A DNA stretch of 38,589 nucleotides, from IMG/VR virus record IMGVR_UViG_3300031857_000056, positions 1-38,589 of that record; one strand, given 5' to 3'. Source of the DNA: a virus (lineage: Duplodnaviria; Heunggongvirae; Uroviricota; Caudoviricetes). Position numbers and translations under genes: made by a program. This document shows, in pieces, positions 430-587 of the stretch (its first letter is position 1; each line of letters opens with the position of its first letter). The notes under the pieces are model-generated. The model was not told the origin of the DNA. It did not search any database and saw only the letters and a list, made by a program, of their open reading frames with translations.

Positions 430-587
430 TTTGGTTGTATAGCTAAGAAAAACAACTTGGTGGAGGGTATATAACCAAAATGCCCCTAGAGTTGGAAGTT
501 CTCTTAAAAAACTTCTTGGTTGCGGGGTTAGCGCATGGTATACTCTGTTTGTTGGGTGGATAGAGTATTCAATAGATACACCCAACA
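430..587 (+). ncRNA. Putative structured ncRNA ending in an H-type pseudoknot (element 2)
   Basis: 12-bp stem 430-441/468-479; hairpin 495-500/510-515; pseudoknot 540-546/562-568 with 550-558/579-587. Confidence 0.6.

Follow-up and report, generated by a model that had tools for sequence, protein, structure and literature searches.

A stretch of viral DNA from the Caudoviricetes (IMG/VR record IMGVR_UViG_3300031857_000056, positions 1 to 38,589; "the window" below means this whole 38,589-nt stretch) contains, amid tRNA genes, two pairs of complementary words that cross one another, raising the question of whether a structured RNA is made from this locus and, if so, what such an RNA does. A preliminary description, made from the sequence alone, had proposed an RNA element at 430–587 that ends in an H-type pseudoknot. 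The knot alone is ordinary; the RNA as a whole, a relative of wcaG RNA, itself listed since 2010 among the orphan riboswitch candidates, makes the long-open question of wcaG testable.

A conserved pseudoknot at the 3′ end of the element

In the window, 540–546/562–568 and 550–558/579–587 are exact Watson-Crick complements that cross, as first described. A comparable knot arose in 4 of 3000 shuffles of the 200-nt region, and shuffling the whole window yielded 0.33 such knots per strand (12 shuffles); in a single sequence the knot is moderately unusual and suggestive only, and homologs decide. A second perfect 7+9-bp H-type knot, at 12174–12231 within a tail-fibre ORF, fits the chance rate.

Pattern scans recovered about 80 relatives in freshwater jumbo phages (82 homologous loci; individual loci are cited by L numbers). 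Across 34 distinct cores, almost all pair positions are kept paired in 29–34 of the 34, with several compensated pair types. S2 is wholly rewritten in L090 and L265, and both stems are rewritten in L116, L272 and L278, with pairing kept throughout. Within a gap-free alignment of 19 rows, 96.8% of cells pair and six pairs have changed on both sides; none of 500 shuffles reached this level and slid registers gave 33–56%, figures that are not to be read as a probability because the rows are related. Uncompensated loss of the stems in homologs had been named beforehand as grounds for rejecting the knot; both stems covary and are kept through compensatory changes. The pseudoknot at 540–587 is conserved and real, and the homologs support the proposal of a conserved non-coding RNA that ends in it.

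The relatives also correct its geometry. S1 extends by 547–561 (GC/GU/AU/UA) and 548–560 (UA/UG/CG), which vary compatibly, and 550–587 is unpaired in 21 of 34 cores, giving an S1 of 8–9 bp, an L1 of about 2 nt, an S2 of 8 bp (551–558/579–586), G559 as L2 and an L3 of 10–13 nt. The crossing stems first described therefore stand, with loops nearer 2, 1 and 10 nt than 3, 3 and 10 nt, and the 9-bp S2 does not, its pair 550–587 being so often open. Unpaired words at 536–540, G559 and 569–574 are near-invariant, L3 (569–578) opening with conserved UCAAUA, and such constancy in the loops is suggestive of a defined tertiary fold or of contact with a protein.

Within this clade, the large knot lies 3′ of every module B (see below) unless a contig end intervenes, and it is single-copy in a complete relative. 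It is absent at nine cyanophage wcaG loci, from the other module-bearing phages tested and from a stand-alone module in L729. A search of 121 Burkholderiales genomes with the knot model, in which 45 candidates were scored per listed genome and no positive control was included, returned no match, a negative that says little. The pseudoknots pk2–pk4 of tmRNA have a knot outline with an A-rich last loop that resembles the large knot. Beyond this outline, tmRNA (RF00023) and our element are linked by A-type modules (see below) inside several phage tmRNA genes, and differ in that the element has no tRNA-like domain or tag frame; ARAGORN and Rfam detected no tmRNA in the window.

Two wcaG-type modules precede the large knot

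From 5′ to 3′, the RNA consists of knot A, tract A and a hairpin, then knot B and tract B, and lastly the large knot (Table 1). Positions 426–527 comprise two wcaG-type modules, each made up of a small pseudoknot and, 3′ of it, a tract that begins with UGG. S1 of module A forms four of its five pairs in this genome and up to eight Watson-Crick pairs in relatives. At least four Watson-Crick pairs between 5′ flank and loop were found in 42 of 67 units of relatives (shuffled maximum 35), in 11 of 20 from unrelated phages and in 10 of 20 from cyanophages, exceeding all 300 partner shuffles in all three sets; the unit lists contain a few false or mis-parsed sites.

Table 1 Features of the element and its surroundings (window coordinates).
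Feature	Position	Strand	Remarks
tRNA-Glu gene	347–422	+	directly 5′ of the RNA
Module A small pseudoknot (wcaG-type)	426–457	+	A-rich loop; S2 433–438/452–457, S1 426–430/439–443
Tract A (UGGUGGAGG plus 2 nt)	458–468	+	complement of tRNA-Ala, tmRNA and betaproteobacterial tRNA-Tyr 3′ ends
Hairpin	465–487	+	465–469/481–485; wcaG P2 position; masks the end of tract A
Module B small pseudoknot	488–516	+	S1 488–491/501–504, S2 494–499/511–516
Tract B	517–527	+	11/11 reverse complement of nucleotides 66–76 of A72-type initiator tRNA-fMet
Linker and entry word	528–539	+	variable linker 528–535, then near-invariant UGGU(A) word 536–540 entering the knot
Large H-type pseudoknot	540–587	+	S1 540–548/560–568, S2 551–558/579–586, L2 G559, L3 569–578
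Spacer and boxA-like word	591–613	+	U-tract spacer 591–595, then boxA-like word 602–613; from sequence
Phage initiator-type tRNA-Met	1668–1744	+	carries U1 and U72; does not pair with tract B at the base just past the ACCA toehold

This layout replaces two domains of the preliminary description. Its 12-bp hairpin domain (430–479) is the minimum-free-energy fold in this genome, yet an equivalent of at least 10 bp is possible in just 3 of 56 distinct upstream modules, and the CCCC and GGGG that were thought to close a domain at 483–527 belong to two separable modules. The CCCC-bearing first module is missing in L086, L100 and L326, modules A and B lie 79 nt further apart in L013, and L090 has an extra module added beside the first. 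The 79-nt insert of L013 (5948–6027, minus strand) has self-complementary ends and is another small RNA cassette. A common segment of ~95 nt is inserted between tRNA-Glu and module A in L087 (~6790–6884), L088 (~5895–5988) and L254.

The Rfam wcaG model (RF01761) aligns over its whole length (1–98) to 425–530 with 30.2 bits and an E value of 7e-4, below its cut-off of 42. Like wcaG (PMC2864571), the element is phage-borne and has the three-stem layout of unit, middle hairpin and unit, with UGG after each unit and stems that covary among relatives. In the alignment of Weinberg et al. 2010 (PMC2864571), SS_cons_1 pairs the loop of the 3′ unit with its 5′ flank, and the same pseudoknot is present here at 488–491/501–504. 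UGGYG follows unit A (458–462), whereas unit B has UGGUU (517–521) instead; tRNA genes flank the element, in place of the potential 5′-UTR position before a protein gene that wcaG has in cyanophages, and the tracts do not fit Synechococcus fMet; and a 48-nt 3′ pseudoknot has been added. Because the score cut-off, the second UGGYG and the 5′-UTR context all fail, we do not file the element as a wcaG member; it is a wcaG relative with an added domain. The preliminary description, right about a conserved structured RNA and mistaken about its upstream layout, had missed both this relationship and the tRNA-complementary tracts. In the literature searched, with subscription journals outside its scope, we found neither a published wcaG function nor a phage RNA complementary to tRNA. 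Cyanophage wcaG loci L226 and L487–L494 contain arrays of up to about five modules, and the Rfam model has two.

The tracts are complementary to tRNA and tmRNA 3′ ends

Tract B is the full reverse complement (11/11) of nucleotides 66–76 of E. coli tRNA-fMet, and Burkholderiales fMet is matched equally at 11/11. The initiator end that it matches is the commonest type in our bacterial sample (42 of 113 gene copies), A72 being found in 21 of 23 Burkholderiales genomes and in 3 of 29 Verrucomicrobiota, which mostly have U72. By our own arithmetic, a random tract with UGG fixed, compared with ~40 tRNA ends, would match with a probability of ~6e-4. All 14 loci recovered by queries that did not contain the tract have it intact (10 nt in one), and its conservation falls at nucleotide 12, directly beyond the acceptor stem. 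Going by the fit of tRNA ends only, Burkholderiales would be the candidate hosts; a host search through Hsp20 homologs named no host, and an apparent Bdellovibrionota match was rejected as chance.

Tract A can form nine Watson-Crick pairs with the 3′ ends of betaproteobacterial tRNA-Ala and tmRNA, and ten with betaproteobacterial tRNA-Tyr. Its sequence recurs in unrelated phages, six times inside their tmRNA gene, which points to Ala/tmRNA as the shared target. The A-type module occupies the 3′ half of the tmRNA gene in L763, L775, L784, L788, L796 and L799; an internal UGG tract was absent from four bacterial tmRNAs and from two tmRNAs of close phage relatives. In cofolding, the 3′ strand of the hairpin that masks tract A (481–487) could instead take hold of the 5′ G-run displaced in tRNA-Ala or tmRNA; it fits the Ala/tmRNA 5′ strand in 16 of 18 variants versus its own hairpin in 9 of 18, a weak comparison in which wobble is permissive.

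Tracts differ between phages, and each suits a tRNA of a plausible host. Those of cyanophage wcaG match Synechococcus tRNA-Leu(CAG/GAG) and tRNA-Pro(CGG) at 11/11, against a full match at none of the 376 UGG sites that served as controls within these loci, and a cyanophage tract fits Synechococcus tRNA-Ala(GGC) with wobble. The two common second-unit tracts have no perfect cyanobacterial target in 41 genomes, their best being tRNA-Arg(ACG) with one mismatch. The best-matched host tRNAs of the cyanophage arrays mostly read G/C-ending codons. The third module in L090 and L105 fits tRNA-Ser, and L729 has a stand-alone anti-fMet module within an unrelated phage tRNA array. This module lies at ~3990–4060 (minus strand) between two tRNA-Thr genes, and a GOLLD RNA scores above cut-off at 632–1115 of the same locus.

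Phage tRNAs and tmRNA deviate where the tracts would bind

Cofolding of module B gave −12.8 and −13.7 kcal/mol with host fMet versus −6.7 kcal/mol with the initiator tRNA of the phage itself, values that ignore tRNA tertiary structure, modifications and bound proteins; for module A, both strands were swapped with tmRNA and tRNA-Ala. Among 20 distinct initiator-like tRNAs of relatives, 19 deviate where tracts would bind: 15 carry U72, three carry U1-A72, which closes the toehold, and one has a changed discriminator, leaving one that is host-like. Similarly, C69 is missing from the tRNA-Ala (6/6) and tmRNA (3/3) of relatives, which form one clade, so that neither these nor the initiator counts are independent.

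An unselected sample of viral tRNA-Ala genes has C69 in 94 of 110, and loci in it that were flagged for an A-type module are non-C69 in four cases out of five (Fisher p 0.0014, with non-independent rows). The four are perhaps kin and have U69, still able to wobble with the tract, and the fifth resembles part of a tRNA-Trp gene. Phage tmRNAs with an embedded A-type module are non-C69 in 4/6; the other two keep C69 and would bind themselves. Self-avoidance is a strong but not absolute pattern.

Genomic setting of the RNA

The window is a portion of a large phage genome, with a tRNA array at 1–2803 followed by virion and tail-fibre genes. The complete relative has 295,831 bp, 29 tRNAs and a tmRNA, and lakes and rivers are the main source of the sequencing runs that contain the stretch. 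The element is flanked by tRNA-Glu (347–422), processing of which would create the 5′ end of the RNA, and by the boxA-like word at 602. The U-tract spacer at 591–595 resembles those 3′ of the tRNAs, and 591–613 is likely the 3′ boundary of the RNA, judged by its letters; no intrinsic terminator was found after the RNA. Contigs of four RNA libraries cover parts of 369–619, with 801–1300 and 2901–3000 uncovered; the runs were chosen via this stretch and the contigs show neither strand nor ends, and the coverage is a hint of expression only.

Several neighbouring features were noted in passing. The next ORF (854–1633) encodes an endonuclease (phrog_945); it has Cys-rich repeats, is inserted in the tRNA array and is probably a homing-type element. 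At ~624–780 lie two tRNA-like genes with CCA ends and unusual T-loops, missed by ARAGORN and Rfam, the first of them with a CAU anticodon loop. Two tRNAs with a UAU anticodon and long variable arms (1751–1844 and 2612–2704) are both shared by relatives. The interval between tRNA-Lys and tRNA-Glu (125–338) looks structured, is missing from most relatives and is covered by RNA-library contigs. Positions 2219–2510 show weak similarity to manA RNA (14.2 bits, E 0.19) and high contig depth in one lake RNA run; in cyanophage S-CREM1, wcaG, manA and abiF RNAs are likewise grouped among tRNAs.

Other readings of the locus were tried and rejected. A 64-aa ORF on the minus strand (394–588) and a 20-codon frame on the plus strand, from an AUG at 535, are each interrupted by 1–2-nt indels in relatives. 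An attP or integration remnant does not fit a match of just 9–11 nt of tRNA end with the T-arm absent, and G-U variants show that the plus strand is the folded one. Comparison of the element with annotated phages and plasmids gave chance matches only. Several relatives break the pairing considered between the 3′ strand of S2 in the large knot and the displaced 5′ strand of fMet, and several break an AUG "specifier" at 535–537.

Discussion

On balance, we think it probable that the element is an RNA acting in trans on selected tRNAs of the host and on tmRNA, docking on CCA and invading their acceptor stems. We infer that an RNA of ~165 nt would be transcribed within the phage tRNA operon and freed by tRNA processing, as a chain of swappable modules. 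In each module, the small pseudoknot would expose an unpaired UGGN to which the NCCA at the free end of a tRNA could pair, the duplex stacking on the knot; invasion of the acceptor stem by the next 5–7 nt of the tract would follow. The partner strand released in module A (481–487) could take up the displaced tRNA 5′ strand with its G-run. Module B would be directed at the host initiator tRNA, and module A at host tmRNA and tRNA-Ala, possibly also at tRNA-Tyr. As the phage versions are altered at the positions read, host initiation and ribosome rescue might be passed to phage RNAs, and the consequence that we favour is that host initiator tRNA and tmRNA/tRNA-Ala would be sequestered and the phage copies favoured.

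The large pseudoknot, tied to module B, would cap and stabilise the otherwise single-stranded 3′ end, or supply a contact, either tertiary or with a protein. Since no stable hairpin follows the tract of module B, capping the 3′ end is the simplest role, and the large knot is probably a 3′ stabilising or docking domain; this is the weakest step of our reading. No observation ties the large knot to tRNA binding.

[quoted passage not shown] The supplement of Weinberg 2010 proposed a dimeric protein for the duplicated UGGYG, and invariant loop words would be needless in a mere barrier. The type III antitoxins ToxI, CptI and TenpI (PMC4627078, PMC12283969) are likewise H-type knots of 45–50 nt with a very short L1 and a long, A-rich minor-groove loop, CptI, a 45-nt knot whose L1 is one base and whose long loop is of the A-minor kind, being alike in outline (PMC4627078), and phage mimicry of ToxI has been described (PMC3475682). 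Our knot, in contrast, is single-copy, has neither tandem repeats nor an adjacent toxin gene and terminator arrangement (the next ORF is the endonuclease), and shows no sequence match to these antitoxins; Rfam gave no match to them and plasmid matches were no better than chance. Nor can one protein site explain tracts that switch between full complements of different tRNA ends. Since the invariant loop words suggest a tertiary fold or protein contact, antitoxin mimicry stays alive for the large knot, where a protein decoy could hold even with acceptor-stem invasion true of the tracts. The exonuclease block or protein-binding role that the preliminary description suggested likewise stays a candidate for this knot.

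The geometry of the modules is that of the T-box discriminator (PMC7583486), in which a helix lies 5′ of UGGN, and UGGN pairs with tRNA NCCA and stacks coaxially; here the likeness is one of complementarity. This raises the alternative, rather improbable in our view, of a cis-acting, T-box-like sensor, in which uncharged host tRNA on the nascent RNA affects how the phage tRNA-Met genes downstream are transcribed or processed. A Met anticodon loop does lie within 235 nt 3′ of the element in 52 of 63 loci, and the wcaG RNA of S-CREM1 is also 5′ of tRNA-Met. However, Rfam returned no T-box hit, and the element has no anticodon-reading Stem I with specifier, no antiterminator bulge (A1/A2, UGGNACC) and no competing terminator or sequestrator; modules also lie within tmRNA genes and form arrays with as many as five members, and pairing spans 9–11 nt rather than 4, so that identity would be read from the acceptor stem, probably in trans. 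By analogy, the RNA may work as would a CCA reader of the T-box type that has been lengthened into an antisense clamp.

The same complementarity would also serve an RNA that protects or chaperones the 3′ ends of tRNAs, either against toxins that trim or modify CCA or by muting the RelA signal of uncharged tRNA, and phage tRNAs are known to counter tRNA-targeting defences (PMC11555353); we hold this to be very unlikely, given that avoidance of the tracts by phage copies is better accounted for by inhibition than by protection, and that an 11-bp invasion would prevent aminoacylation. A self-cleaving ribozyme or small-molecule riboswitch core, once suggested for the knot, has in its favour a compact knot with invariant junction and loop nucleotides and the listing of wcaG as a probable riboswitch in its original annotation, and is nonetheless highly improbable: Rfam at E up to 10 on 421–830 matched wcaG only, with no riboswitch and no consensus core of hammerhead, twister, pistol, hatchet or HDV-like ribozymes, and there is no downstream protein gene to regulate. 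The preliminary description, too, had found no consensus motifs of hammerhead, twister, pistol or tmRNA.

Returning to acceptor-stem invasion, its extension to the whole family seems to us evenly balanced between right and wrong: wcaG-type modules may be widespread, retargetable anti-tRNA RNAs of phages, in which a pseudoknot platform presents an 11-nt address that selects a host tRNA or tmRNA and opens its acceptor stem. Such modules would be arrayed or placed within phage tmRNA, phage tRNAs would have been recoded to escape them, and the large knot would be an extra domain of the anti-initiator module. If the tracts do bind tRNA ends, wcaG would be a protein-free means by which phages switch off selected host tRNAs and tmRNA, and large phages would have a reason to encode an initiator tRNA, tRNA-Ala and tmRNA of their own with odd alterations. 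The tracts could then assist the prediction of phage hosts, and a natural scaffold that invades acceptor stems would be a potential tool for tRNA-specific inhibition.
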